This document shows positions 4,950-56,690 of a stretch of DNA of 64,000 nt, piece after piece. Both the position numbers and the translations under genes were made by a program. Numbering within the stretch: position 1 is the stretch's first letter; each line of letters opens with the position of its first letter. This DNA is from Mobula hypostoma. Its lineage: Eukaryota. The notes under the pieces are model-generated. The model made no database searches. It was not told where the DNA came from and saw only the letters and a program-made list of their open reading frames with translations. The DNA lies in contig NC_086097.1 of NCBI RefSeq assembly GCF_963921235.1, positions 11,036,001-11,100,000 on the forward strand, written 5' to 3'.

Positions 4950-5875
4950 AGTCAAACAGAAAAGCCATAACAGAATGCAGAATATGGTGTTATAGTTATG
5001 GAGAAAGTGCAGTGCAGACAGACAATAAGGTTCAAACCCATAATGAAGTAGATTAAAAGAATTATCATAGTCCAATTTATCACAGTTGGTGGCCATTCAA
5101 AGGGCTTACAGCAGTGGTATAGAAGCTGTCTTTGAGCCTGGTGGTATGTGCTTTGTGGCTTTTGCATCTTCTGCCTGACTGGGGGGGGGGGCAGGGTAGA
5201 AGAAAGACTGTCCACAATGAGTGGGTTTAATTCTGTTGATTCTGTTGAGGCAGCGAGAAGCGTGGGCAGAGTGTATAGAGAGAAGCAACACACATCAAAG
5301 TTGCTGGTGAACACAGCAGGCCAGGCAGCATCTGTAGGAAGAAGTGCAGTCGACATTTCAGGCCGAGACCCTTCGTCAGGACTAACTGAAGGAAGAGTGA
5401 ATAAGGGATTTGAAAGTTGGAGGGGGAGGGGGAGATCCAAAATGATAGGAGAAGACAGGAGGGGAGGGATGGAGCCGAGAGCTGGACAGGTGATAGGCAA
5501 AAGGGGATACGAGAGGATCATGGGACAGGAGGTCCGAGAAGAAAGACAAGGAGGTGGGGGGACCCAGAGGATGGGCAAGAGGTATATTCAGAGGGACAGA
5601 GGGAGAAAAAGGAGAGTGAGAGAAAGAATGTGTGCATAAAAATAAGTAACAGATGGGGTACCAGGGGGAGGTGGGGCCTTAGCGGAAGTTAGAGAAGTCG
5701 ATGTTCATGCCATCAGGTTGGAGGCTACGCAGACGGAATATAAGGTGTTGTTCCTCCAACCTGAGTGTGGCTCCAACCTGAACGTATAGAGAGAAGACTG
5801 GTTTGTGCGATGTGCTGAGCTGTGCCCACAGCCCTCCGGCAAAGCAGTTGCTGCACCAAGCCATAATGTATCCAG
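4950..5875 (-). mobile_element. Rex1/Babar- or L2-group LINE 3' fragment, interrupted by a Penelope-like insertion
   Basis: 3' UTR similar to other copies (17.4, 48.3, 54.5 kb); host sequence resumes after the TSD at 5796. Confidence 0.55.
5286..5783 (-). mobile_element. Neptune-type Penelope-like element, 3' part (GIY-YIG tail + 3' UTR + hammerhead)
   Basis: ORF 5679-5864 ends LRLEEQHLIFRLRSLQPDGMNIDFSNFR; 13-bp TSD GTATAGAGAGAAG (5273-5285, 5784-5796). Confidence 0.88.
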
Positions 5876-6094
5876 CTTCAGAAAAATCTAATAATAAACC
5901 TCAGGTAGCAAGAGCAACACACAAATTGTGGAAGAACTCTACAGATCAGGCAGCATCTATGGTTGATGTTTTGAGTCAGGACCCTTCATTTGGACTGCTG
6001 TACCCAGGAAAAACACATGGCTGTAGTAGCAATTCTCGTTGAGAGTGTCATCGAAAAGCAAGGGATCAGTAGAAATCTTAAAGAGGAAGCAGTG

Positions 6095-9000
6095 GGAGAA
6101 GGTCTCTCAGACCTACCACCACAGAAAGTGCAAAACAATTGGTTGGGGGGTGGGAATCAAATTAAAGAGACGAGGAGAGAGGAGGTTATTTCACAACAGG
6201 GGGATGGGAACAAGTGCAGAGAGACAGAGGGGTGTAAAATGAGGGTAGAAGTAAAAAGCAGTAAGGTGAAAAGTAAAAGTGGCAGGCCGGCAAATCCAGG
6301 ACAAAAATCAAAAAGAGCCACTTTTCAACATAATTGTATAAGGGCTAAGAGTGTTGTAAAAGCAAGCCCGAAGGCTTTGTATGTCAATGCAAGGAGCATT
6401 CATAACAAGGTGGATGAATTAAAAGTGCAGATTATTATTAATGAATATGATATAGTTGGGATCACAGAGACATGGCTCCAGGGTGACCAAGGCTGGGAGC
6501 TCAACATTCAGGGATATTCAATATTCAGGAGGGATAGACATGAAAGAAAAGGAGGTGGGGTAGCATTGCTGGTTAGAGAGGAGATTAATGCAATAGAAAG
6601 GAAGGATGTTAGCCGGGAGGATGTGGAATCGATATGGGTAGAGCTGCATAACACTAAGGGGCAGAAAACGCTGGTGGGAGTTGTGTACAGGCCACCTAAC
6701 AGTAGCAGTGAGGTTGGGGATGGTATTAAACAGGAAATTAGAAATGTGTGCAATAAAAGAACAGCAGTTATAATGGATGACTTCAATCTACATATAGATT
6801 GGGTGAAGCAAATTGGTAAGGGTGCTGAGGAAGAGGATTTCTTGGAATGTATGCGGGATGGTTTTTTGAACCAACATGTCGAAGAACCAACAAGAGAGCA
6901 GGCTATTCTAGACTGGGTATTGAGCAATGAGGAAGGGTTAATTAGCAATCTTGTCATGAGAGGCCCCTTGGGTAAGAGTGACCATAATATGGTGGAATTC
7001 TTCATTAAGATGGAGCGTGACATAGTTAATTCAGAAACAAAGATTCTGAACTTAAAGAAGGGTAACTTTGAAGGTATAAGACGTGAATTAGCTAAGATAG
7101 ACTGGCAAATGACACTTAAAGGGTTGACGGTGGATATGCAATGGCAAGTATTTAAAGATCGCATGGATGAACTACAACAATTGTTCATCCCAGTTTGTCA
7201 AAAGAATAAATCAAGGAAGGTAGTGCACCCATGGCTGACAAGGGAAATTAGGGGTAGTATCAATTCCAGAGAAGAAGCATACAAATTAGCCAGAAAATGT
7301 GGCTCACCTGAGGACTGGGAGAAATTCAGAGTCCAGCAGAGGAGGGCAAAGGGTTTAATTAGGAAAGGGAAAAAAGATTATGAGAGAAAACTGGCAGGGA
7401 ACATAAAAACTGACTGTAAAATCTTTTATAGATATGTGAAAAGAAAAAGATTGGTTAAGGTCCCCTACAGACAGATACAGGTGAATTGATTATGGGGAGC
7501 AAGGACATGGCAGACCAATTGAATAACTACTTTGGTTCTGTCTTCACTAAGGAGGACATAAATAATCTTCCGGAAATAGTAGGGGACAGAGGGTCCAGTA
7601 AGATGGAGGAACTGAGGGAAATACATGTTAGTAGGGAAGTGGTGTTAGGTAAATTGAAGGGATTGAAGGCAGATAAATCCCCAGGGCCAGATGGTCTGCA
7701 TCCCAGAGTGCTTAAAGAAGTAGCCCAAGAAATAGTGGATGCATTAGTGATAATTTTTCAAAACTCTTTAGATTCTGGACTAGTTCCTGAGGATTGGAGG
7801 GTGGCTAATGTAACCCCACTTTTTAAAAAAGGTGGGGGAAAGAAACCGGGGAATTATAGACCGGTTAGCCTAATGTCGGTGGTGGGGAAACTGCTGGAGT
7901 CAGTTATCAAAGATGTAATAACAGCACATTTGGAAAGCGGTGAAATGATCGGACAAAGTCAGCATGGATTTGTGGAAGGAAAATCATGTCTGACGAATCT
8001 CATAGAATTTTTTGAGGATGTAACTGGTAGAGTGGATAGGGGAGAACCAGTGGATGTGGTATATTTGGATTTTCAAAAGGCTTTTGACAAGGTCCCACAC
8101 AGGAGATGAGTGTGCAAACTTAAAGCACATGGTATTGGGGGTAAGGTATTGATGTGGATAGAGAATTGGTTAGCAGACAGGAAGCAAAGAGTGGGAATAA
8201 ACGGGACCTTTTCAGAATGGCAGGCAGTGACTAGTGGGGTACCGCAAGGCTCAGTGCTGGGACCCCAGTTGTTTACAATATATATTAATGACTTGGATGA
8301 GGGAATTAAATGCAGCATCTCCAAGTTTGCGGATGACACAAAGCTGGGCGGCAGTGTTAGCTGTGAGGAGGATGCTAAGAGGATGCAGGGTGACTTGGAT
8401 AGGTTGGGTGAGTGGGCAAATTCATGGCAGATGCAATTTAATGTGGATAAATGTGAGGTTATCCACTTTGGTGGCAAGAACAGGAAAACAGATTATTATC
8501 TGAATGGTGGCCGATTAGGAAAAGGAGAAGTGCAACGAGACCTGGTGTCATTATACACCAGTCATTGAAAGTGGGCATGCAGGTACAGCAGGTGGTGAAA
8601 AAAGCGAATGTTATTCTGGCATTCATAGCAATAGGATTCGAGTACAGGAGCAGAGAGGTACTACTGCAGTTGTACAAGGCCTTGGTGAGACCACACCTGG
8701 AGTATTGTGTGCAGTTTTGGTCCCCTAATCTGAGGAAAGGCACCCTTGCCATAGAGGGAGTACAAAGAAAGTTCACCAGATTGATTCCTGGGATGGCAGG
8801 ACTTTCATATGATGAAAGACTGGATCGACTAGGCTTATACTCGTTAGAATTTAGAAGATTGAGGGGGGATCTTATTGAAACGTATAAAATCCTAAAGGGA
8901 TTGGACAGGCTAGATGCAGGAAGATTGTTCCCGATGTTGGGGAAGTCCAGAACGAGGGGTCACAGTTTGAGGATAAAGGGGAAGCCTTTTAGGACCGAGG

Positions 9001-9260
9001 TTAGGAAAAACTTCTTCACACAGAGAGTGGTGAATCTGTGGAATTCTCTGCCACAGGAAACAGTTGAGGCCAGTTCATTGGCTATATTTAAGAGGGAGTT
9101 GGATATGGCCCTTGTGGCTAAAGGGATCGGGGGTATGGAGGGAAGGCTGGTACAGGGTTCTGAGTTGGATGATCAGCCATGATCATACTGAATGGTGGTG
9201 CAGGCTTGAAGGGCCGAATGGCCTACTCCTGCACCTATTTTCTATGTTTCTATGTTTCTA
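6095..9260 (+). mobile_element. CR1 LINE with near-complete but disrupted ORF2 (APE endonuclease + reverse transcriptase)
   Basis: EN motifs YVNARS, GITETWL, GGGVALLV, VYRPP, SDHN; RT motifs KSPGPDG, YRPVSL, QHGF, YLDFQKAFDKVPH, GVPQGSVLGP, FADDTK; frameshift ~7460, stop 8107-8109, frameshift ~8545; (CTATGTTT)n tail. Confidence 0.96.
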
Positions 9261-14840: not shown

Positions 14841-15342
14841 AACAGTTTGAGTTGTGTCTATTTTAACACAAGGAGTATTGTGAACAAAGTGGATGAGCTT
14901 AGAGCGTGGATCAGTACTTGGAGCTATGATGTGATGGCCATTACAGAGTCTTGGATGGCTCAGGGACAGGAATGGTTACTTCAAGTGCCGGGTTTTAGAT
15001 GTTTCAGAAAGGACAGGGAGGGAGGCGAAAGAGGTGGGGGCGTGGCACTGTTGATCAGAGATAGTGTCACGGCTGCAGAAAAGGTGGACATCATGGAGGG
15101 ATTGTCTACGGAGTCTCTGTGGGTGGAGGTTAGGAACAGGGAGGGGTCAATAACTTTATTGGGTGTTTTTTTATAGGCCGCCCAGTAATAACAGGGATAT
15201 TGAGGTGCAGATAGGGAAACAGATCCTGGAAAGGTGTAATAATAACAGAGTTGTTGTGATGGGAGATTTTAATTTCCCAAATATTGATTGGCACCTCCCC
15301 AGAGCAAGGGGTTTAGATGGGGTGGAGTTTGTTAGGTGTGTT
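14841..15342 (+). mobile_element. CR1 endonuclease fragment
   Basis: YFNTRSIVNKVDEL, AITESW, GGGVALLI, FYRPP, MGDFNFP. Confidence 0.9.
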
Positions 15343-24574: not shown

Positions 24575-24746
24575 CAGAACACAGAGCCTTGGTCTTGGGG
24601 AGGACAGGAACACAGAGCCTTGGTCTAGAGCACGGGAACACAAATCCTTGGACTAGAGTATGGGAACACAGAGCCTTGGTCTAGAGCACAGGAACACAGA
24701 GCCTTGGCCTAGAGCACGGGAACACAGAGCTTTGGACTTGAGAGAC
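24575..24746. repeat. 28-bp minisatellite GGAACACAGAGCCTTGGTCTAGAGCAC(A/G)
   Basis: Units start at 24607, 24635, 24663, 24691 and 24719, plus a degenerate unit at ~24577. Confidence 0.9.
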
Positions 24747-25419: not shown

Positions 25420-26745
25420 TTAGTGTATTATTTTTGTTTTGTACAATTTTAGAGTGGAAAAAAAAAGGAAAGGAGCACCATGCAAAGGTTTGGGCACCCC
25501 AAGAGATTTGAGCTCTCAGATAACTTTTACCAAGATCTCAGACCTTAAATAGTTTGTTAGGGTTATGGCTTGTTCACAGTCATCTTTGGGAAAGGCGAGG
25601 TGACGCAAATTTCAAAGCTTTATAAATACCCTGACTTCTCAAACCTTGTCCCAACAATCAGCAGCCATGGGCTCCTCTAAGCAGCTGCCTAGCACTCTGA
25701 AAATTAAAATAAATGATGCCCACAAAGCAGGAGAAGGCTATAAGAAGATAGCAAAGCATTTTCAGGTAGCCGTTTCTTCAGTTCGTAATGTAATTAAGAA
25801 GTGGCAGTTAACAGGAACGGTGGAGGTCAAGTTGAGGTCTGGAAGACCAAGAAAACTTTCCAAGAGAACTGCTCGTAGGATTGCTAGAAAGGCAAATCAA
25901 AACCCCTGTTTGACTGCAAAAGACCTTCAGGAAGATTTAGCAGACTTTGGAGTGGTGGTGCACTGTTCTACTGTGCAGCGACACCTGCACAAATATGACC
26001 TTCATGGAAGAGTCATCAGAAGAAAACCTGATGACCTCACCACAAAATTCAGGATCAGAAGTTTGCAAAGGAACATCTAAACAAGCCTGATGCATTTTGG
26101 AAACAAGTCATGTGGACTGATGAAGTTAAAATAGAACTTTTTGGCCGCAATGAGCAAAGGTATGTTTGGAGAAAAAAGCTTGCAGAATTTCATGAAAAGA
26201 ACACCTCTCCAACTGTTAAGCACCGGAGTGGATCGATCATGCTTTGGGCTTGTGTTGCAGCCAGTGGCATGGGGAACATTTCACTGGTAGAGTGAGGAAT
26301 GAATTCAATTAAATACCAGCAAATGCTGGAAGCAAACATCACATCGTCTGTAAAAAAGCCGAAGATGAAAAGAGGATCGCTTCTACAACAGGATAATGAT
26401 CCTAAACACACCACAAAATCCACAATGGACTACCTCAAGAGGCGCAAGCTGAAGGTTTTGCTGTGGCCCTCACAGTCTCCTGACCTAAACGTCATCGAGA
26501 GTCTGTGGATAGACCTCAAAAGAGCAGTGCATGCAAGAGGGCCCAAGAATCTCACAGAACTAGAAGCCTTTTGCAAGGAAGAATGGGAGAAAATCCCCCA
26601 AACAAGAATTGAAAGACTCTTATCTGACTACGGAAATCATTTACAAGCTGTGATACTTCGGGCTCTTTTCCTTTTTTGTTATTTTGAAATTATGAAAGAT
26701 GGAAATAAAAAAGTTTACTTGCTTAAAATATTAAAGAAATGTGTC
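25420..26745 (+). mobile_element. Tc1 (DD34E) transposon, transposase pseudogene
   Basis: TATAAATA 25621; ATG 25667 [36 protein letters not shown] with 34 residues between the second D and E; frameshift ~26030, stop 26293. Confidence 0.95.
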
Positions 26746-26819
26746 AAAATTTCTGTTACTGTGAATAGCTAAACGAGTAAAAGATGAACTAATTTCCAAA
26801 AGCCATAAAGTTAAAGCTG

Positions 26820-27232
26820 ACATATTTCTTTAATATTTTAAGCAATATTACTTTTTTTATTTCCATCTTTTACAATTTCAAAATAACAAAACGGAAAAGA
26901 GCCTGAAGCAAAAGTTTGGGCACCCTGCATGGTCAGTACTTAGTAACATCCCCTTTGGCAAGTATCACAGATTGTAAACGCTTTTTGTAGCCAGCTAAGA
27001 GTCCTTCAATTCTTGTTTGGAGGATATTCGCCCATTCTTCCTTGCAAAAAGCTTCTGGTTCTGTGAGATTCTTCGGTCGTCTTGCATGCACTGCTCTTTT
27101 GAGGTCTATCCACAGATTCTCGATAATGTTTAGGTTGGGGACTGTGACGGCCATGGCAAAACCTTCAGCTTGCGCCTCTTGAGGTAGTCCATTGTGGATT
27201 TTGAAGTGTGTTTAGGATCATTATCCTGTTGC
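26820..27232 (-). mobile_element. Inverted partial second copy of the same Tc1 (catalytic C-terminus + 3' end)
   Basis: Minus ORFs [32 protein letters not shown] and [24 protein letters not shown]. Confidence 0.92.
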
Positions 27233-28000: not shown

Positions 28001-28998
28001 ATATGGATGAGATATTGAATTTATTAAGTGAATCAGAATCAGGTTTAATATCACTGGCATATGTCGTGGAATTCATTGTTTTGCAGCAGCTGTACATTGC
28101 AATAAATAATGATGATAAAATTATAATTACAAGCCTCTGCACCTCCCAGAGGAACAACTAGTTATTATCACAGCAGTAGATGCCCAGCAACAGGCAGCAA
28201 ATATGAAGAACTGGACATCACTAGGGCCTGACGTGACCACTCCTATTGGCTGGAGAAACTAACAGCATTACATACACGGCATGGCAGCTCAAATGAACCA
28301 ATTGCTTGAAGCAAGCTTCCATCTTGATTGAGTAACTCAAGGAAGGATAGTACTCATAATGAAGCATCCTCACAAAGGAGAAATACTATCAAACTAACAG
28401 CCCATCACCTGCCTGTCAACAACACGGAAGCTCCTGTCAGGCATCATAGCCACCAAGCTGAAGGAACATATGTGTAACTTCCTGAATCTTGCTCAGAGGG
28501 GAATTGATATTGGAACCAAAGGCTCCAAGTACCAAGTACTGGTAGACAAAGCAGTGAAGTGAGACTCCAAGACCCGGCAAACCAACTTAAGCACTGCCTG
28601 GATCAACTACCAGAAAGCATAAGACCCAATGCCCCACACATGGTTCTTGGAATACTTTTCTCTGTACAAGGTTAACAAGATACTGAGGACTTTCATCAAG
28701 AACTCAATGGGCCATTGGAGGACAATGCTAGAAGTTTATTCAAAGCCAATAGTGCCCATCAGATGTGGAATATACCAGGGTGATCCACGATCCCCACTGC
28801 CATTCTGCATAGACTTGAACCACCTCAGCCAGATCATCTCAAAGAGTGAATATAAGTACAGGTTCAAGAATGGAGTGACCATCAGCCATCTCCTGTACAT
28901 GGATGACATCAAGCTGTATGCCAGAATTGAAAGAGACATTGACTCACTAATCCACCTGTCAAGGGTGTACAGCAAAGACAATGGGATGTCATTTTTTT

Positions 28999-29618
28999 TT
29001 AGATTATGAAGACATGCAGTCCTCTCTTATTGTCATTTAGTAATGCATGCATTAAGAAATGATATAATATTTCCTCCGGTGTGATATCACAAAACACAGG
29101 ACAGACCAAGACTGAAAAAACTAACAAAACCACATAATTATAACATATAGTTACAACAGTGCAACAAGACCATAACTTGATGAAGAAGTCCATGAGCACA
29201 GTAAAAAGTTCAAAGTCTCTCAAATGTCCCACATCTCACGCAAACGGGAGAAGGAAGAAAAACTCTCCCTGCCATGCCCGACCACAATCCGAATCTGAGT
29301 CATCCGAAAACTTCGAGCCCCCGATCAGCTCTCCGACACTGAGTACTAAGCGCCATCTCTGCCGAACAACTCGACCTCAATCTTGGTTGCCAACAGCAGG
29401 CAAAGCCAGGGATTTTGAGGCCTTCCCTCCAGAAGATTCCCGACTGCACAGTAACAACAGCAGCGAACTGGCGTTTCAGAAATTTCTCCAGATGTTCCTC
29501 TGTGCTTTCACGTCTGTCTCCATCAAATCAGAATTGTCCACGGCCCCTATTTAACGGATACGTTATCATTTTTCACCAGAGGGCTGCGCACGCATGGCGT
29601 GCTGCTCTCTCTCCTCCC
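28999..29618 (-). mobile_element. Family S1 SINE-like element, full length
   Basis: Same GGGAGGAGA 5' end and AATGACAATAA..TAATCTA tail as 10043-10728. Confidence 0.85.
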
Positions 29619-29654
29619 GGAGATATTGACTGGAGGATTTTGACTGGAAAAGTA

Positions 29655-32054: not shown

Positions 32055-33445
32055 ATGAGTAGTTTAGTAAGTTTGCTGATGACGCAGAAGTTGGGCATGT
32101 TGTGGATAATCTGGAGGGCTGTCGGAGATTATAGCGGGACATTGATAGGTTGTGGAACTGGGCTAAGAAGTGGCAGGTGGAGTTCAATCCAGATGTGTAA
32201 AGTGGTTCATTTCAGTAGGTCAAATTAGAAGACAATTTGATATAAATGGTAAGACTCTTGGCAGTGTGGATGATCAGCAAGATCTTGGGGTCCATGTCCA
32301 TAGGGCACTAAAAGCTGCTGCATAGGTTGACAGTGTTATTAAGAAGGTGCATGGTGTGATTGCCTTTATCAACAGTGGGACTGAGTTCAAGAGCCATGAA
32401 GTAATGTTAAAGCTATAGATTATGAAGACACGCAGTCCTCTTTTATTGTCATTTAGTAATGCATGCATTAAGAAATGATACAATATTTCCTCCGGTGTGA
32501 TATCACAAAACACAGGACAGACCAAGACTGAAAAACTAACAAAACCACTTAATTATAACATATAGTTACAACAGTTCAACAATACCATAACTTGATGAAG
32601 AACAGTCCATGAGCCCAGTAAAAAGTTCAAAGTGTCTCAAATGTCCCACATCTCACGCAGATGGGAGAAGGAAGAAAAACTCTCCCTGCCATGCCCGACC
32701 ACAGTCCAACTCTGAGTCGTCCGAAAACTTTGAGCCTCTGATCAGCTCTGTGACAACGAGTACTGAACACCATCTCTATCCGAGCGATTCAACCTCAATC
32801 TCGGTTGCCAACAGCAGGCAAAGCCAAGGATTTTGAGGCCTTCCCTCCGGAGATTCACGATCGCGCAGTAATGAAAGCAGCGAACGGGCGTTTCAGAAAT
32901 TTCTCCAGATGTTCCTCTGTGCTTTCACGTCTGTTTCCACCAAATCAGAATTGTCCATGGCCCCTATTTAACAGATTCTATATCATTTTTTACTGGAGAG
33001 CTGCGCACACACAGTGCGCTGCACTCTCTCCTCCCGTCGTCAGAATTTACATAAGATGAGAGGTGACCTGATAGAGGTGTATAAGATGATGAGAGGCATT
33101 GATTGTGTGGATAGCCAGAGGCTTTTTCCCAGGGTTGAAATAGCTAACATGAAGGGCTATAGTTTAAAGGTGCTTAGAAGTAGGTACAAGGGAGATGTCA
33201 GAGCTAAGTTTTTCACACAGAGAGCGGTGGTGGGTGCATGGAATGTACTGCCAGTGATAGTGGTAGAGGTGGATACAATAGGGTCTTTTAAGAAACTCTT
33301 AGATAGGTACATGGAGCTTAGAAAATTAGAGAACTATGCTGTAGGGAAATTCTAGATGATTTCTAGAGTAGGTTACATGGTCAGCACAACATCGTGGGCT
33401 GAAGGGCCTGTAATGTGCTGTAGATTTCCATGTTCTATGTTCTAT
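32055..33445 (+). mobile_element. CR1 RT/3' fragment interrupted by an S1 SINE
   Basis: SKFADD at ~32067; MRGDLIEVYK..WNVLP ORF 33014-33355; TTCTATG tail. Confidence 0.85.
32416..33035 (-). mobile_element. Family S1 SINE-like element, full length
   Basis: Very similar to 28999-29618 throughout. Confidence 0.87.
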
Positions 33446-40390: not shown

Positions 40391-40409
40391 TGGCCTTGAA
40401 CTCTTGTTA

Positions 40410-40792
40410 CTTCTCAGAAAGGACAGGGAGGGAGGCAAAAGAGGTAGGGGCATGGCATTGTTGATCAGAGATAGTGTCACGGCTGCAGAAAAGGAGAAAG
40501 ATATGGAGGTATTGTCTACAGAGTCTCTGGGTGGAAGTTAGAAACAGGAAGGGATCAATAACTCTACTGGGTGTTTTTTAAAGACCACCCAATAATAACA
40601 GGGACATCGAGGTGCAAATAGGGAGACATATTCTGGAAAAGTGTAATAATAACAGGGTTGTCATGGTAGAAGATTTTAATTTCCCAAATATCCATTGGCG
40701 TGTCCCTAGGGCGAAGGGATTAGATGGGGTGGAGTTTGTTAGGTGTATTCAAGAAGGTTTCGTGACACAATATGTAGATACACCTACAAGAG
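40410..40792 (+). mobile_element. CR1 endonuclease fragment
   Basis: RKDREGGKRG, RPP, EDFNFP; homologous to 15000-15340. Confidence 0.85.
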
Positions 40793-41323
40793 GAGATGGG
40801 GTACGAGGGGGAGGTGGGGCATTGGCGGAAGTTAGAGAAGTCAATGTTCATGCCATCAGGTTGGAGGCTACCCAGACAGAATATAAGGTGTTGTTACTCC
40901 AACCTGAGTGTGGTTTACAGTAGAGGAGGCAGTGGACCCCACCTCCCCCTCGTACCCCATCCGTTAATTATTTATATGCATACATTCTTTCTCTCTCTCT
41001 CCTTTTTCTCCCTCTGTCCCTCTCACTATACCCCTTTCCCATCCTCTGGGTTTTTCCCCCCTCCCCCTTTTCTTTCTCCCTGGGCCTCCTAACCCATGAT
41101 CCTCTCATATCCCTTTTGCCAATCACCTGTCCAGCTCTTGGCTCCATCCCTCCCCCTCCTGTCTTCTCCTATCATTTCGGATCTCCCCCTCCCCCTCCCA
41201 CTTTCAAGTCTCTTACTAGCTTTTCCTTCAGTTAGTCCTGACGAAGGGTCTCGGCCCGAAACGTCGACTGTACCTCTTCCTAGAGATGCTGCCTGGCCTG
41301 CTGCGTTCACCAGCAATTTTGAT
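40793..41323 (+). mobile_element. Neptune-type Penelope-like element: short inverted piece (40793-40935) + 3' end with intact hammerhead
   Basis: Homology to 52520-53510; hammerhead 41231-41269. Confidence 0.88.
41231..41269 (+). ncRNA. Minimal type-I hammerhead ribozyme motif
   Basis: Stem I AGUC/GACU; CUGACGA 41238-41244; stem II GGGU-CUCG-GCCC; GAAA 41258-41261; palindromic stem III ACGU; GUC cleavage triplet ending 41265. Confidence 0.8.
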
Positions 41324-41324
41324 G

Positions 41325-42210
41325 AGATCTCAAAATGGAGTTAGACCAAAGCATCGTTATCGCTTCAGCAATCTCTTTCAGGATTCTGGGATGTAGTCCG
41401 ACTGGTCCAGGTGACTTATCCAGCTTAAGATCTTTGAGTTAACTGTCACTTTTTCCAATTTCACTCATTCCAGCTCTCGGACACTGATGACACACTGCTG
41501 GTGTCTTCCATGCTGAAGACAGATGCAAAGTACCCATTAAGTTCATCTTTATCCCCCATTACTACCTCACCAGCATCATTTTCCAGTGGTTCAACATCAA
41601 CTCCCACCTCTCCTTTACTCTTTATATAACTGAAAAATCTTTTGGTGTCCTGCTTCATTTTATTGGCTAGTGTGCCCTCATATTTTATCTTTTCCTTTCT
41701 TATTATTTTTTCAGTTGCCTTTTGTTGAATTTTTAAAACTTCCCAATCATCCAACTTCCCACTCACTTTTACTACCTTATATGCCCTTTCCTTGGTTTTT
41801 ATGCCATCCTTAACTTCTCTTGCCAGCCATGGTTGCCTGCCCCTGCCATTTGAGAACTTCTTCCTCTGTGGACATATCTGTTCTGCTCTTTATGAACTAT
41901 TCCCAGAAACTCCGGCCAGCTCTGCTCTGCTGTCACACTCGGCAGTGTCCTTCTCTAATCCACTTGGACAAGTTCCTCTGTCATGCCTCTGTAATTCCCT
42001 TTATTCCATTCTAACACTGATTGATGTGAGTTATGCTTCTCCCTCTCACACTGCAGTGTGAATTCAATCATATCATGAACACTGCCTCCTAAACATTCCT
42101 TCTGAGTAAGCTCCCTAATAAGATCTGGGTAATTACACAACACCAATCTAAGATAGCCTTTCCCTACGTAGGCTCATGCACAGGCTGCTCTAAAAAGCCA
42201 TCTTGTAGGT
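41325..42210 (-). mobile_element. CR1 ORF2 mid fragment (EN end to RT start)
   Basis: Minus strand LGGSVHDMIEF, FFSYIKSK, ELNGYFASVF, KSPGP. Confidence 0.85.
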
Positions 42211-42613
42211 TCCTCCCCTTCTTACTCTATCCCTTATTTATTTATTTACTATTTTTTATTTTTTCCCCTTTTTTCTCTCCCTCTGTCCCTCTCACTATAA
42301 CTCCTTGCTTGATCTCCATCTTCGTCTGGGCTCCCCTCCCCCTTTCTTTCCCCCTTGGCCTCCCGTCCCATGATCCTCTCCCTTCTACAGCACTGTATCC
42401 CTTTTGCCAATCACCTGTCCAGCTCTTAGCTCCATCCCTCCCCCTCCTGTCTTCTCCTATCATTTCGGATCTCCCCCTCCCCCTCCCACTTTCAAGTCTC
42501 TTACTAGCTTTTCCTTCAGTTAGTCCTGACGAAGGGTCTCGGCCCGAAACGTCGACTGTACCTAGAGATGCTGCCTGGCCTGCTGTGTTCACCAACAACT
42601 TTGATGTGTGTTG
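42211..42613 (+). mobile_element. Neptune-type Penelope-like 3' end with intact hammerhead (42519-42557)
   Basis: CTGACGA 42526-42532, GAAACGTC 42546-42553. Confidence 0.88.
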
Positions 42614-43124
42614 GGGGAGAGATGAACCTCAGGTTTCACCTAGCACCCGGTGTTTCTCTCTCCCCTCCCCCACCTTTTAAATCTACTCCTCTGTATTTTT
42701 CGCCAGTCCTGCCGAAGGCTCTGGGCTCAAAATGTTGACTGTACTCTTTTCCATAGATGTTGCCCGGCCTGCTGAGTTCCTCCAGCATTTTGTGTGTGTT
42801 GCTTGGATTTCCAGCATCTGCAGATTTTCTTTCATTTGTGAGCATAATCAAAGGCCCACCCACCTGGGTACTCTCTCTTCTCCCATCTCCCACTGGGCAG
42901 AAGATCCAAAATCCTGAAAACATCTATGATCAGGCTCAAAGACAGCGTCTATCCTGCTGTTTTACGACGAGTGAACCATTTCCTATTATGTCAAAATGGA
43001 CTCTTAACCTCACAATCTATCTCGTTATGATCTTGCACCTTACTGCTTACCTGCAGTGCACTTTCTCTGTAGCTGTTACACTTCACTCTGCATTGTTTTA
43101 CGTTGCATGGCCTCAATGTCCTAT

Positions 43125-44034: not shown

Positions 44035-44865
44035 GAAGTCATAGAGTCATGAAGCACTAGGTATAGAAACAGGCCTTTAAGCTCAGGTAGTCCATGCTGA
44101 ACTATTATTCTGCCAACACGCGGAAATCTGCAGATGCTGGAATTTGAAATGACACATACAAAAGTTGCAGGTGAATGCAGCAGGCCAGGCAGCATCTCCA
44201 GGAAGAGGTGCAGTCAACGTTTCGTCTGGGTAGCCTCCAACCTGATGGCATGAACATTGACTTCTCTAACTTCCGCTAATGCCCCACCTCCTCCTTGTAC
44301 CCCATCCGTTATTTATTTATATGCACACATTCTTTTTCTCTCTCTCCTTTTTCTCCCTCTGTCCCTCTGACTATACCCCTTGCCCATCCTCTGGGATTTC
44401 CCCCCCCTCCCCCTTTTCCTTCTCCCTGGGCCTCCTGTCCCATGATCCTCTCACATCCCTTTTGCCAATCACCTGTCCAGCTCTTGGCTCCATCCCTCCC
44501 CCTCCTGTCTTCTCCCATCATTTCGGATCTCTCCCTCCCCCTTCCCACTTCCAAATCTCTTACTAGCTCTTCCTTCAGTTAGTCCTGACGAAGGGTCTCG
44601 GCCGGAAACATCAACTGTACCTCCTCCTAGAGATGCTGCCTGGCCTGCTGCGTTCACCAGCAACTTTTGTGTGTGTTGCTATTATTCTGCCAATTCGCAT
44701 CTACCCACACCTTCACCGCATCCCTTCATACCCCTCCCATCCATGTACTTATCCAAATTTCTCCTAAATATTGAACTCGAATCTGCATCCACCATTTCCA
44801 TTGGCAGGTCATTCCACAGTCTCACCACTTTCTGAGTGAAGAAGTTCCCCCTCATGTTCCCCTTA
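44035..44865 (-). mobile_element. CR1 3' end hosting a Penelope-like insertion
   Basis: ORF 44682-44912 NFFTQKVVRLWNDLP; UTR resumes left of the TSD. Confidence 0.8.
44117..44678 (+). mobile_element. Neptune-type Penelope-like insertion (inverted 3' end 44117-44225 + forward 3' part)
   Basis: 15-bp TSD CTATTATTCTGCCAA (44102-44116, 44679-44693); RLGSLQPDGMNIDFSNFR*. Confidence 0.9.
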
Positions 44866-49687: not shown

Positions 49688-50347
49688 ACACACACAAAGT
49701 GCTGGAGGATCTCAGCAGCTCAGGCAGTGTCTATGGAGAGGAATAAATTGTCAAGGTTTCAAGCCGAGGCTCTTCATCAGTTCTCAGCCCAAAGTCCTGA
49801 TGAAGTGTCTCAACACAATCTGATGACTATTCATTCATTTCCATGGCTGCTTCCTGACCTGCTGAGTTCCTCCAGCATTTTGTATGTGTTGTTCTGAATT
49901 TTCAGCATTTGCAGAATCGCTTGTGTTTATCGCAATTATTTTGTTCTTCCTTACACTTGCGTACTGCAAGCAACATTAAATTATCTTGAATTTTGAATCA
50001 AACATGAGAAAATCTGCTGATGCTGGAAATACAAGTGATGCACACAAAATACTGGTGGAACTCAGCAGGCCAGGCAGCATCGATGGAAAAGAGTAAACAG
50101 TTGGCATTTCAGGCCAAGACCCATGGAACCAAATAAGGAAGGTGGGTGGGCAGCTGGGAACAGTTGGGGGACAGGACCCAATAGGAATAGAGTGAAGGTA
50201 ACGGGCAAATGGAACAGGTGGTCAACTGCTGGAAGGACAAATCTTTCAGTCCTGGTGAAGGGTCTCGGCCCAAAACATCAACTGTCTACTCTTTTCCATA
50301 GACACCTGGCCTGCTGACTTCCTCCAGCATTTTGTGTGCATTACTTG
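49688..50347. mobile_element. Two older palindromic family-A Penelope-like hairpin elements (49688-49930, 50000-50347)
   Basis: ACACAAA.TGCTGGAGGA.CTCAGCAG.. and its reverse complement in each; decayed hammerhead cores. Confidence 0.75.
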
Positions 50348-50989
50348 AATTTTGAATGTTAAGTACAGCAGAAATTTTTCTTCCCCGAAGAACATTGGTG
50401 AACAGGTTGGAACTTAACTATAATCAGACAGTTTCATTTTAGGTTGATTGAATCCCTTGAAGTTAGAATCTCCCACTGACAGGATTGGATTCAAACATAT
50501 GTCACTGACAGCTAGTTCAGTAACTTAATCATTATATTCCATACCACTTTTCACAGTCTATCATTAATTTAAAATCATAACAGAAGAAACACCCCATATG
50601 TAATGGATAAAAAAAAACTAGTTGTGTTACTGTTGGTACATGGGACAGATGCCTCAGTCCTTTCTCACAGCTGCTAGGCTCTATATTAGGAGTGGGGTGC
50701 GTATCATTAGAACATAGATTTCACAGATTGTTCAGACATCTGGCAACTTAACAGGTACAACTGAGTGGTGTGTCCACAAAACAGCGGTGGATTCACAATA
50801 ACCCTAATTCATTGGCTCCAAGGTTCTTTAGTACAAAGAAAAGAATTTAAGAAGTGCTTAATAAATATAATTTGTTGCTGTTAAATGGTTGCATGATGGG
50901 GAAAGTCTTTGGGGGGGGGGAAGGACTTGCTTGTACTTGACACCTTTCAAGCTCCAGTTCAAATTTATTGTAAAAGGCATATAGAGTAT

Positions 50990-53510: not shown

Positions 53511-53685
53511 TTAGGGTGATCATTTGGTGTGTTGCATCAATGCCAGTTCATTTGGACTCGCTCTCCTAGTACGTGCTTTCTCAAAGACCTACAGATTTTC
53601 CTCTTACTCAGGTGGTTATCCATGTCTATCATTGATCCTCCAAAGAAACATATATGACATGAGGTAATGCACATATGCAAACAAA

Positions 53686-54258
53686 CTCTCAGTGGCCACT
53701 TAATTAAGTATCTCTTGTACATTATAAAGTAGCCACTGAGTGTACTCATGTGGTCTTCCACAGCTGTAGCCCATCCAGTTCAAGGTTTGACGTGTTGTGC
53801 ATTCAGAGATGCTCTTCTGCACACCACTATTGTAACACGTGATTATTTAAGGTATAGTTACCTTCCTGTCAGCTTGAATCAGTCTGGCTATTCTCCTCAG
53901 ACCTCTTTCATTAACAGGGTCTTTTCGTCCACAGAACTGCCGCTCACTGGATTTTTTTTTTGTTTCTCACACCATTCTCTGTAAACTCTAGAGGCCATTG
54001 TGTATGAAAATTCCAGGAGATCAGCAGTTTCTGAGATACTCAAGCCATCCTGTCAGGCACCAACAATCATTCCACGGTCAAAGTCACTTGGATCTCATTT
54101 CTTCCCCATTCTGATGTTTGGGCTGAAAAACAGCTGAATCCCTAGACCACGTCTGCATGCTTTTATGCGTTGAGTTGCTGCCACATGATTGTTTGATTAG
54201 ATATTTGCATTAATAAGTAGGTGTACAGGTGCACCTAATAATGTGGCTATTGAGTGTA
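53686..54258 (-). mobile_element. Tc1-like deletion derivative (second family) with three TIR copies
   Basis: TIR CACTCAGTGGCCACTTTATTAGGTAC; minus strand MGKK*DPSDFDRGMIVGA..SISETADLL HTH region; mini-palindrome 53686-53742. Confidence 0.85.
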
Positions 54259-55040: not shown

Positions 55041-56415
55041 ATTTCCACAGTGAAATAGTTTTTTTTGGTCTAAAATTAAACAGTAATACTTGAATTTTAG
55101 AACAGTACATGTTAAAACAGATTAAATCAACTTCTCCACTTGTGTGAAATGTGCACTTGACTTCAGTTTTTATGTATTCATTTGCCCCTTAAATTAAATC
55201 AAATATAGTGCAATCAATCTGCCAGAATGCTCGGAAATAATTTCTGTTTGAAAAAAGCTGTCTTTATTTCTAATGAATAGTAGAGTTTAGCCACTTACAT
55301 GAAAACTGATCTCTCTTTGCATCAAGGACCATTTATGTGCACTTACTGTGGCATTATATCAAAAAGACCCTTGAAGGGTAACCTTTTAAAAAATCACGAA
55401 AGTTACAATTAATATGTGGTAGTAGGCCATGCTCTCTTCTCGTTGCTGCCATCAGGAAGAAGCTGCAGGAGCCTCAGGTCCCACACCACCAGGTTCAGGA
55501 ACAATTATTATCCCTCAACTATCAGGCTCCTGAATCACTCAACTTCACTCAGCCTATCACTGAAATGTTCCCACAACCTATGAGCTCACTCTCAATGACT
55601 CTTCGTCTTATGTTCTCGAGAAAATTAACCTCAGGCTAGTATATGGTGACATATATCCAGTTTGATAATAAATTTACTTGGAACTTTAAACTTCTGTTTT
55701 TCTCTTTGGAGCAAAGGAAGATGAGAGGCAACTTGACAGATGCACAAGGTTATAAGAGAAAAAATTAGAGGGGACCACCAACCCCTTTTTCCCAGTGCAG
55801 CAATGGCTAGTATCAGAAGACATCCATTTAAGGTGAGTTGCTTATTTATTAATTAATTTATTATTATTTCTTTTTTCTATTTTGTATTTACTCAGTTCGC
55901 TGCCTTTTGCACATTGGTCATTTTGTCTACCCTGTTGGGTGTGGTCTTTCATTGATTCTATTATGATTCTTGGATTTACTGAACATGCCCTCAAGAGAGT
56001 GAATCTCAGAGTTGTATACAGTGACATATATGTACTTTGATAATAAATTTATTTTGAACTTTGAAGTTTGAAGGCTAAGTGTTTTGTGATCCAAGGTGAG
56101 GTTGGAACGTTCCTTTGAAAATCCAGATTTTTTTGAAAACTATGCTGTTTGTTCCCTCTGTGGAGTTTATTAGCCAGGCCTGTTAATGAATGTTTACAAC
56201 TTTGAAATGTCCAGCAAGTTTGAGTTCAGAGGTGAGTTCTCTCTGAAGCTCTCCTCATAGCAGTTAACCCTCTTCCTAAAGAAAATGACCAGTCTCTGGT
56301 AATGCAGAGAACTGTGATGGCTGAGACATTTAAAGAGAAGTTGCATCAAAATCTGAAAGGCCAAAGAATTGAGGGCTAAGTTGAAAAGGAGTTGAGACAT
56401 GGGACCACTCAAATG

Positions 56416-56690
56416 CACTCAGTGGCCACTTTATTAGGTACAAGCGGCCACTGAGTGTACTTGATTGCTCCCACGTCTCAGCAACTTTTCTATTTAGCCC
56501 TCAATTCCTTGACCCTTCAGATTATTATGTAACTTCCCTGGTACCTAATAAAATGGCGGCTGAGTGCGTGTTCATGGTCTTCTGCTGTTGTAGTCTGTCC
56601 ACTTCAAAGATTGATGTGCTGTTTGTTCAGGGATGCTCTTCCACACACCACTGGTTTAACGTGGTTATTTGAGTTACCGTTCCCCTCCTG
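56416..56690 (-). mobile_element. Same Tc1-like family as 53686, truncated, containing an inverted copy of its flank
   Basis: TIRs at 56416-56442, 56443-56457 (partial) and 56541-56566; internal sequence matches 53745-53870. Confidence 0.82.

Follow-up and report, generated by a model that had tools for sequence, protein, structure and literature searches.

Penelope-like elements (PLEs) carry minimal hammerhead ribozymes, for which the portion of PMC4209133 used here describes no cleavage as monomers and low cleavage as dimers or trimers in vitro, with activity in vivo left open. For an Anolis PLE, the part of PMC11167929 drawn on describes a hammerhead whose cleavage depended on protein and which was dispensable for insertion in vitro, and in the accessible part of 10.64898/2026.07.22.740005 one of nine Xenopus hammerhead dimers was cleaved. 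Related motifs define the animal retrozymes, whose monomers span 150-450 bp in one report (PMC7229834, excerpt) and 51-972 bp in another (10.64898/2026.07.22.740005, excerpt). As worded in these excerpts, the 2020 definition requires canonical type I hammerheads, whereas the 2026 screen admits minimal ones too. The retrozyme families in the supplement of the latter, where a chondrichthyan genome is represented, may be relevant to the novelty of the locus described below. The literature searched, mostly outside subscription journals, gave no precedent for a LINE fragment mobilised with a PLE hammerhead on either side.

Two PLE copies, A and B, which flank a fragment of a CR1-type LINE, were analyzed in 64,000 nt of the Mobula hypostoma contig NC_086097.1 (positions 11,036,001 to 11,100,000, hereafter the window). 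An initial annotation had proposed that their hammerheads delimit a retrozyme-like unit or a block mobilised as a whole. The reading favored here, and considered probable, is one of separate insertions, rearrangement, and local gene conversion between neighboring repeats.

Two hammerheads around a CR1 fragment

The locus comprises the following features, in window positions:

40414..40796, + strand: CR1-type LINE fragment, endonuclease region, left flank of A (tblastn E 3e-17; 85.5% to 15004-15342)
40795..40936, - strand: inverted 5' piece of A, with the end of the PLE GIY-YIG ORF and the first UTR bases (92.6% to 53115-52967)
40937..41324, + strand: copy A, PLE 3' UTR/pLTR of the main subfamily with a shortened tail (89-94% to the copies at 44.3, 53.1, and 5.3 kb)
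41108..41275, + strand: putatively homogenised tract in A, 168 nt, with perfect A/B identity over 41141-41275 (135 nt)
41234..41269, + strand: minimal type I hammerhead A, identified by sequence, with features matching those in the part of PMC4209133 used; predicted cut after 41265
41325..42210, - strand: antisense CR1-type fragment with stops and frameshifts, both element ends missing (tblastn)
42212..42613, + strand: copy B, PLE 3' UTR/pLTR; its upstream half, with insertions of 11 and 14 nt, is of a second subfamily, and its tail lacks 6 nt
42396..42563, + strand: putatively homogenised tract in B
42522..42557, + strand: minimal type I hammerhead B, identical to A by sequence; predicted cut after 42553
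42704..42830, + strand: decayed tail from a related PLE family, its hammerhead core disrupted by 7 mismatches in 33 (sequence comparison)

Both hammerheads are encoded on the + strand with cores of the form CUGACGA-A-(stem II)-GAAA-CGUC at 41238-41265 and 42526-42553, and the identical 33-nt cores start at 41236 and 42524. In A, stem I pairs 41234-41237 with 41266-41269 (B being the same at +1288), stem II pairs 41246-41249 with 41254-41257 over 4 bp and is followed by GAA, and stem III is a loop-less ACGU palindrome at 41261-41264, next to C17 at C41265. The CUGACGA motif of A occupies 41238-41244, and an extra unpaired A at 41245 precedes the pair G41246-C41257. The conserved core (CUGANGA/GAAA/NUH) and helices I and II were present in A and B with valid pairs throughout, as were the unpaired base 9/10.1, the G10.1-C11.1 pair, and the palindromic 15.2-16.2 without a loop. 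The predicted NUH cuts, after C41265 and C42553, are exactly 1288 nt apart, and the two intact same-strand motifs of the initial annotation were thus recovered from the sequence. An Rfam scan of the 64-kb window at E values up to 1 returned eight matches, with no hammerhead among them. A and B are a pair of PLE minimal hammerheads, a motif and a host element that have already been described.

The family copy at 53 kb continues upstream into a broken ORF with a Pfam GIY-YIG match (E 1.2e-4, 22.7 bits at a cut-off of 22.6); through this copy, the hammerhead is placed in the terminal repeat of a GIY-YIG-bearing PLE. The GIY-YIG domain of the same ORF is preceded by CX4CxxC, given as the linker motif of Neptune and Nematis PLEs in the part of PMC8557442 used. 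The host PLE would accordingly be Neptune/Nematis-like, with CX4CxxC as the sole mark of the clade and the PLE reverse transcriptase (RT) located outside the window.

The family tail gave 13 blastn matches in the window. In simulations (5000 each) with densities of 5, 6, 7, and 10 copies in 64 kb, chance alone put two same-strand copies no more than 1.3 kb apart in 18, 26, 36, and 61% of cases, and hence the spacing of A and B needs no explanation. An exact 30-nt family pattern had 0 matches in metagenome contigs. A Pfam search of 111 frames of the window (110 of the 140 frames of at least 85 aa, and the PLE ORF end) yielded transposon-type matches as well as three weak ones below the cut-off, and identified no host exon.

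Other repeats in the window included four degenerate PLE tail relics, clustered on both strands within 700 nt (49688-50352), a CR1-type ORF2 that is nearly complete, is spread over four frames, and includes the endonuclease and RT domains (5975-9182), and a Tc1/mariner (Sleeping Beauty-like) transposase remnant whose 3' part has undergone an inverted rearrangement (25604-27231). A direct duplication (28988-29619 and 32404-33036) has copies 3416-3417 nt apart with 87-98% identity. Two short palindromic elements with matching arms and sub-threshold miRNA matches (56411-56462 and 53681-53747) are probably MITE-like, and a 28-nt minisatellite of at least four units was found at 24600-24742.

The inverted 5' piece of A, its shortened tail at 41324, the bounded 168-nt tract, and the degenerate third tail had been overlooked in the first reading. 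The inverted piece (40795-40936) has a 25-nt overlap with the forward part of A and the same translated C-terminus as the 53-kb copy. A ends at 41324, and family contigs go on beyond this position with letters absent from A. Relative to the family, the starting points of B and of the forward part of A are no more than about 8 nt apart, and the upstream half of B is a repeat family in its own right in the sequencing runs.

The left CR1 fragment (40414-40796) belongs to another subfamily than the inner one, and family contigs depart from it at 40414 and 40796. The inner fragment, previously annotated as antisense CR1, was confirmed by tblastn on the minus strand at 41325-42210, where it spans the end of the endonuclease domain to the RT start; the window's CR1 ORFs used as the reference (E 1e-26 and 1.5e-14) bear Pfam Exo_endo_phos and RVT_1. 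Ordinary target-primed insertion does not leave LINE pieces that lack their 3' end. Since the inner fragment lacks this end, a deletion or a repair-type capture is implied. LINE (L1) insertions without signs of endonuclease activity and with target deletions are described in the part of PMC1920257 used.

Several smaller observations concern the junctions. The breaks of the two CR1 fragments fall in one shared region of the endonuclease domain. Positions 40783-40792, in the left flank of A's inversion, form a 10-nt inverted match with 42201-42210 at the CR1/B junction; such a match, found here in 16 comparisons, occurs in 0.1% of random pairs and represents chance or microhomology. Adjoining the 3' end of B, 42614-42626 is an inverted match, at 11 of 13 positions, to 42654-42666 in the pyrimidine-rich stretch that precedes the degenerate tail, and it may be a very small inversion at the 5' end of this older copy. 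The right flank of B was discarded as a continuation of the left CR1 fragment because the family continuation after 40796 has different letters, and a 19-nt filler at 41325 was dropped because a weak CR1 alignment extends to the junction.

A tract of near-identity between A and B

In the upstream segment (40945-41107), A and B differ at 36 of 156 sites (23%) and by four indel events, which bears out the earlier remark that their UTR segments are unlike; A is 7-13% from three other family copies in this segment. Within 41108-41271, A and B differ at one of 164 sites, compared with 7-17 differences in nine other copy pairs. Pooled over the nine pairs (98/1448), the contrast gave a Fisher p of 4e-4 for pairs that are not independent, and a Poisson P of 0.007 was obtained even against the lowest count of 7. 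The tails differ at 3 of 47 sites and by the 6-nt deletion in B (4 of 48 in the tract-versus-tail comparison, Fisher p 0.01). The near-identity of the tract, unlike the spacing of the copies, exceeds chance. Its start adjoins the 14-nt insertion of B and its end is the deletion of B. All six CpGs of the tract are intact, compared with 10 of 23 changed in four other copies; selection on these CpGs was considered and dropped, as P was 0.03 for one copy and 0.15 for the best of five.

A and B have in common a G at 41208/42496 and a T at 41222/42510, neither of which occurs in the 44.5-, 53.3-, and 5.4-kb copies, as first noted in the initial annotation. Their frequency was estimated from contigs of four runs aligned to 40400-42395 at 90% likeness, a stretch that ends before the tract and right flank of B. 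X1 is DNA of the same species, X5 and X6 come from one sample of a second organism, and X21 is a run guessed to be RNA. The depths are summed contig means rather than copy numbers, with differences incompletely counted and figures taken from the listed rows; the contigs carry no information on strand, ends, or level and, within this repeat, are too short for phasing. At 41208, the family letter A accounted for 99.1, 97.8, 99.2, and 94.8% of the depth in X1, X5, X6, and X21 (non-family letters 0.91, 2.17, 0.82, and 5.15%). At 41222, the family letter C accounted for 95.4, 92.1, 96.6, and 99.8% (non-family letters 4.64, 7.86, 3.39, and 0.16%). With non-family letters at no more than 0.9% and 4.6% of the depth in X1, the shared variants are infrequent in the family and do not mark a common subfamily, from which it follows that A and B share history. 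Five variants of A that are not in B had other letters at 0.85-3.55% in X1, the same range as the shared positions.

The B-type upstream subfamily contributes a few percent of the family depth (175,000-492,000 versus 6.4-8.5 million in X1 bins), and the run-depth contrast agrees with a high abundance of the PLE family. T41222 may be a trait of this B-type subfamily, and G41208 may mark a minor branch. If T41222 is a B-type trait, the tract in A, a member of the main subfamily upstream, would have come from a B-type donor, for which the neighboring B is the simplest candidate. If both letters are subfamily marks, the donor might instead be a distant copy, and an exchange with A would still be required.

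A tract that differs at 1/164 sites between flanks that differ at 36/156 and 4/48, and that is bounded by indels, fits gene conversion. The locus shows what conversion between close repeats is expected to leave, namely a bounded tract of excess identity with shared rare variants, and Alus within about 10 kb of each other are described as undergoing conversion in the portion of a review used here (PMC8230782). A and B would accordingly be 5'-truncated ends of an abundant PLE, from two subfamilies, each with the family's ordinary minimal hammerhead. Separate insertions may have been brought into the present layout by deletion or break repair, with the CR1 piece between them as a remnant or repair patch. 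A later non-allelic conversion would then have copied about 130-170 nt, hammerhead included, between the copies, more likely from B to A. Several points weigh against the conversion reading: the sequences compared include no unconverted ancestral state, the loss of both target site duplications (TSDs) demands extra events, and the 10-nt inverted match and the intact CpGs of the tract also run counter to it.

The identity of the tract would have a trivial cause if reads of one copy had corrected the other during assembly or polishing, so that A and B were plain independent neighbors. The family is of very high copy number, the 168-nt tract is about one short read long, and complex PLE insertions are described as troublesome for assemblies in the part of PMC8557442 used. 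Such an artefact is nevertheless distinctly improbable, as one difference remains inside the tract, the tails and upstream parts stay distinct, and mis-polishing in a large family should presumably pull a copy to the consensus rather than to rare letters.

Insertion history of the block

In all three control copies of the family, TSDs of 15, 14, and 13 nt were found, and two of these copies have inverted 5' pieces. The 13-15 nt duplications of the control copies (44104-44693, 2013-2252, and 5272-5792) begin directly after the same 3' end. In the 44-kb and 2-kb copies, an inverted tail at the 5' end starts 8-15 nt upstream of the hammerhead cut site. For A, B, or the whole block, no TSD was found in the eight junction pairings tested, where the longest direct match was 4-6 nt. 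The 6-nt match, the best for the block, was reached by 20% of random window pairs, and none of about 3000 such pairs reached 11 nt.

In X1, zero-difference contigs of the interior had depths of 22.8 and 24.9, against a range of 4.9-28.6 for the remaining six records listed; in X5 the depth was 41.6, against 40.5-103.4 for the remaining seven. This depth fits one locus, or at most two, with the interior present in the second organism too. No zero-difference interior piece was among the listed records of X21, and no listed contig bridged either CR1 junction by 31 letters; one X6 record (42125-42225, three differences, depth 8.4) extends over the CR1/B junction with no more than 14 aligned letters and was left uncounted. 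No RNA run was among those listed as containing 41290-42250; the word share of this interval was 0.03-0.04 in three same-species runs guessed to be RNA, a figure with no bearing on expression, and 14 further runs with word shares of 0.09-0.16 were excluded from the results. The claim that Penelope machinery had mobilised the block was not supported: the block has no TSD, its interior has single-locus-like depth, and its ends belong to different subfamilies, 23% apart upstream.

A single compound integration was weighed against separate insertions. Here, the PLE RT would have started at the 3' end of B and changed templates twice, first to CR1 sequence and next to another PLE RNA (A), with the inverted piece primed by the other target strand; the product would have been dead on arrival, with loss of target DNA. 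The order of inverted piece, pLTR, insert, and pLTR, with a tail at one end, resembles a single PLE insertion, and it counts against separate insertions that the forward part of A and B begin at most about 8 nt apart on the family. An inverted 5' piece does adjoin the upstream pLTR (40795-40936), the layout is like that of tandem/inverted PLE insertions in the part of PMC8557442 used, and a PLE protein cleaves and extends both strands in vitro in the part of PMC11167929 used. One event would also account for the missing TSD at both inner junctions, and the 10-nt inverted match described above is compatible with it. Against these points, the two pLTRs do not belong to one element with a PLE body, given the 23% upstream divergence and the CR1 interior, and the outer duplication, empirically 13-15 nt in this window, is at best 6 nt, although all three controls have one, including the two with inverted 5' pieces. 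The family continuation of the left CR1 past 40796 is unlike the right flank of B, three templates from two subfamilies are required, and the halt of the identity at both tract ends is left unexplained. Compound integration is thus considered unlikely. Explanations of other kinds were given a very slight chance.

Cis cleavage and comparison with known systems

A double hammerhead with stems I and III formed between the copies and a local stem II can be drawn in cis without mismatch; it is nested and uses valid pairs only, with no pseudoknot. To this extent the retrozyme-like reading stood. The structure was 21-25 kcal/mol above the ensemble in three transcript lengths and still 18.6 kcal/mol above the best fold in two isolated 47-mers. 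Most of the penalty in long transcripts therefore comes from the motif itself or from the energy model, which is a poor guide here, and carries little weight. In A, B, and two of the three other copies folded, the 5' strand of stem I can instead pair within an upstream hairpin. The circular 1288-nt unit, with a GC content of 44.6%, folded no better than 12 shuffles (z -0.23).

As a non-LTR retrozyme, however, the unit falls short in tandem repetition, size, and copy family. It is not a head-to-tail tandem repeat, as 168 of its 1288 nt recur near-identically and the interior occurs once in the window, and it exceeds the monomer sizes given above. Interior depths in X1 and X5, which describe listed records and contigs rather than the genome, gave no dispersed family of units. 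The hammerheads are minimal, a motif that the two retrozyme definitions given above treat differently. Plant LTR retrozymes, characterized by type III hammerheads in LTRs, PBS/PPT, and a 4-bp TSD, do not correspond, as the motif is type I and the repeats are not a matching pair of LTRs. The tail of B differs from that of A and consists of family sequence even beyond the point where A meets CR1. Since a copy made from a circle of the unit would terminate in the first part of the unit itself, this tail has another origin. All three DNA runs contained joints that go back 1288 nt (depth 221, 50, and 86); the back-junction search proposed in the initial annotation would therefore mislead, and short reads of this kind cannot prove a circle. 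B itself, whose tract lies outside the aligned stretch, must yield such a joint, and rows with other letters between and a higher depth point to further family copies.

A working unit would require a + strand transcript that forms the A/B double hammerhead and releases a 1288-nt RNA, maybe circular, to be copied by PLE proteins. The perfect motifs with their nested, mismatch-free double hammerhead, the six intact CpGs (at the P values given above), the GC content, and the weak in vitro cleavage of minimal-hammerhead dimers in the part of PMC4209133 used are all in keeping with this. Still, such a unit is very improbable in light of the missing tandem array, the oversized monomer, the single-locus-like depth, the tail of B, the unremarkable circle fold, and the hairpin that occupies the stem I 5' strand in A and B. 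The published record adds, in the portions used, an Anolis hammerhead that needed protein and was dispensable for insertion in vitro, and eight of nine Xenopus dimers uncleaved. Amplification of the 1288-nt unit is unlikely. As a model, the pair might be a retrozyme at birth, in which minimal hammerheads matched by conversion would cut in cis across 1.25 kb and yield a 1288-nt linear or circular RNA, mostly antisense CR1; this is very improbable. If true, minimal PLE hammerheads would work in vivo over a long foreign spacer, and host or LINE DNA would become ribozyme-processed RNA.

Under the favored reading of separate insertions and conversion, the locus would have no mobile or coding function as a unit, and weak cis-dimer cleavage would be possible and incidental, if a + strand transcript ever crosses it. 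The locus as it stands matters little, as its motif and host element are known and copies this dense will often lie close together. A and B do supply a ready-made cis dimer with which cleavage by PLE minimal hammerheads could be examined. The locus also carries a warning for genomes with many PLE tails, where matched ribozymes and back-junction reads, the signatures of retrozymes, can be imitated by local conversion and by reads from the family.

Compared with the PLE minimal hammerheads in the portion of PMC4209133 used, A and B share the core, the unpaired base 9/10.1, the G10.1-C11.1 pair, the loop-less palindromic helix III, and a helix I of 4-5 bp, as well as the terminal repeat behind a GIY-YIG ORF and the prevalence of solo truncated copies. 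In contrast, helix II has 4 bp here and 7-8 bp in Schistosoma, and the direct pair described there brackets a PLE ORF (about 3 kb) rather than a CR1 fragment. The animal non-LTR retrozymes, as described in parts of PMC7229834 and 10.64898/2026.07.22.740005, likewise have two same-strand type I hammerheads from PLE terminal sequence and a GC content just below 45%. They differ from this locus, known from DNA alone, which has no tandem unit, a minimal motif, a length of 1288 nt, a foreign LINE interior, and nothing to indicate a family of copies. The tandem/inverted PLE insertions, in the parts of PMC8557442 and PMC11167929 used, resemble the locus in an inverted 5'-truncated piece beside a pLTR and a second direct pLTR downstream, whereas here no PLE ORF lies between the repeats, two subfamilies are involved, and a TSD is missing. 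As in the non-allelic gene conversion of Alus, described in the part of PMC8230782 used, neighbors within 10 kb share non-diagnostic variants; the Alu pattern is genome-wide, whereas the present case is one PLE pair without an outgroup state.
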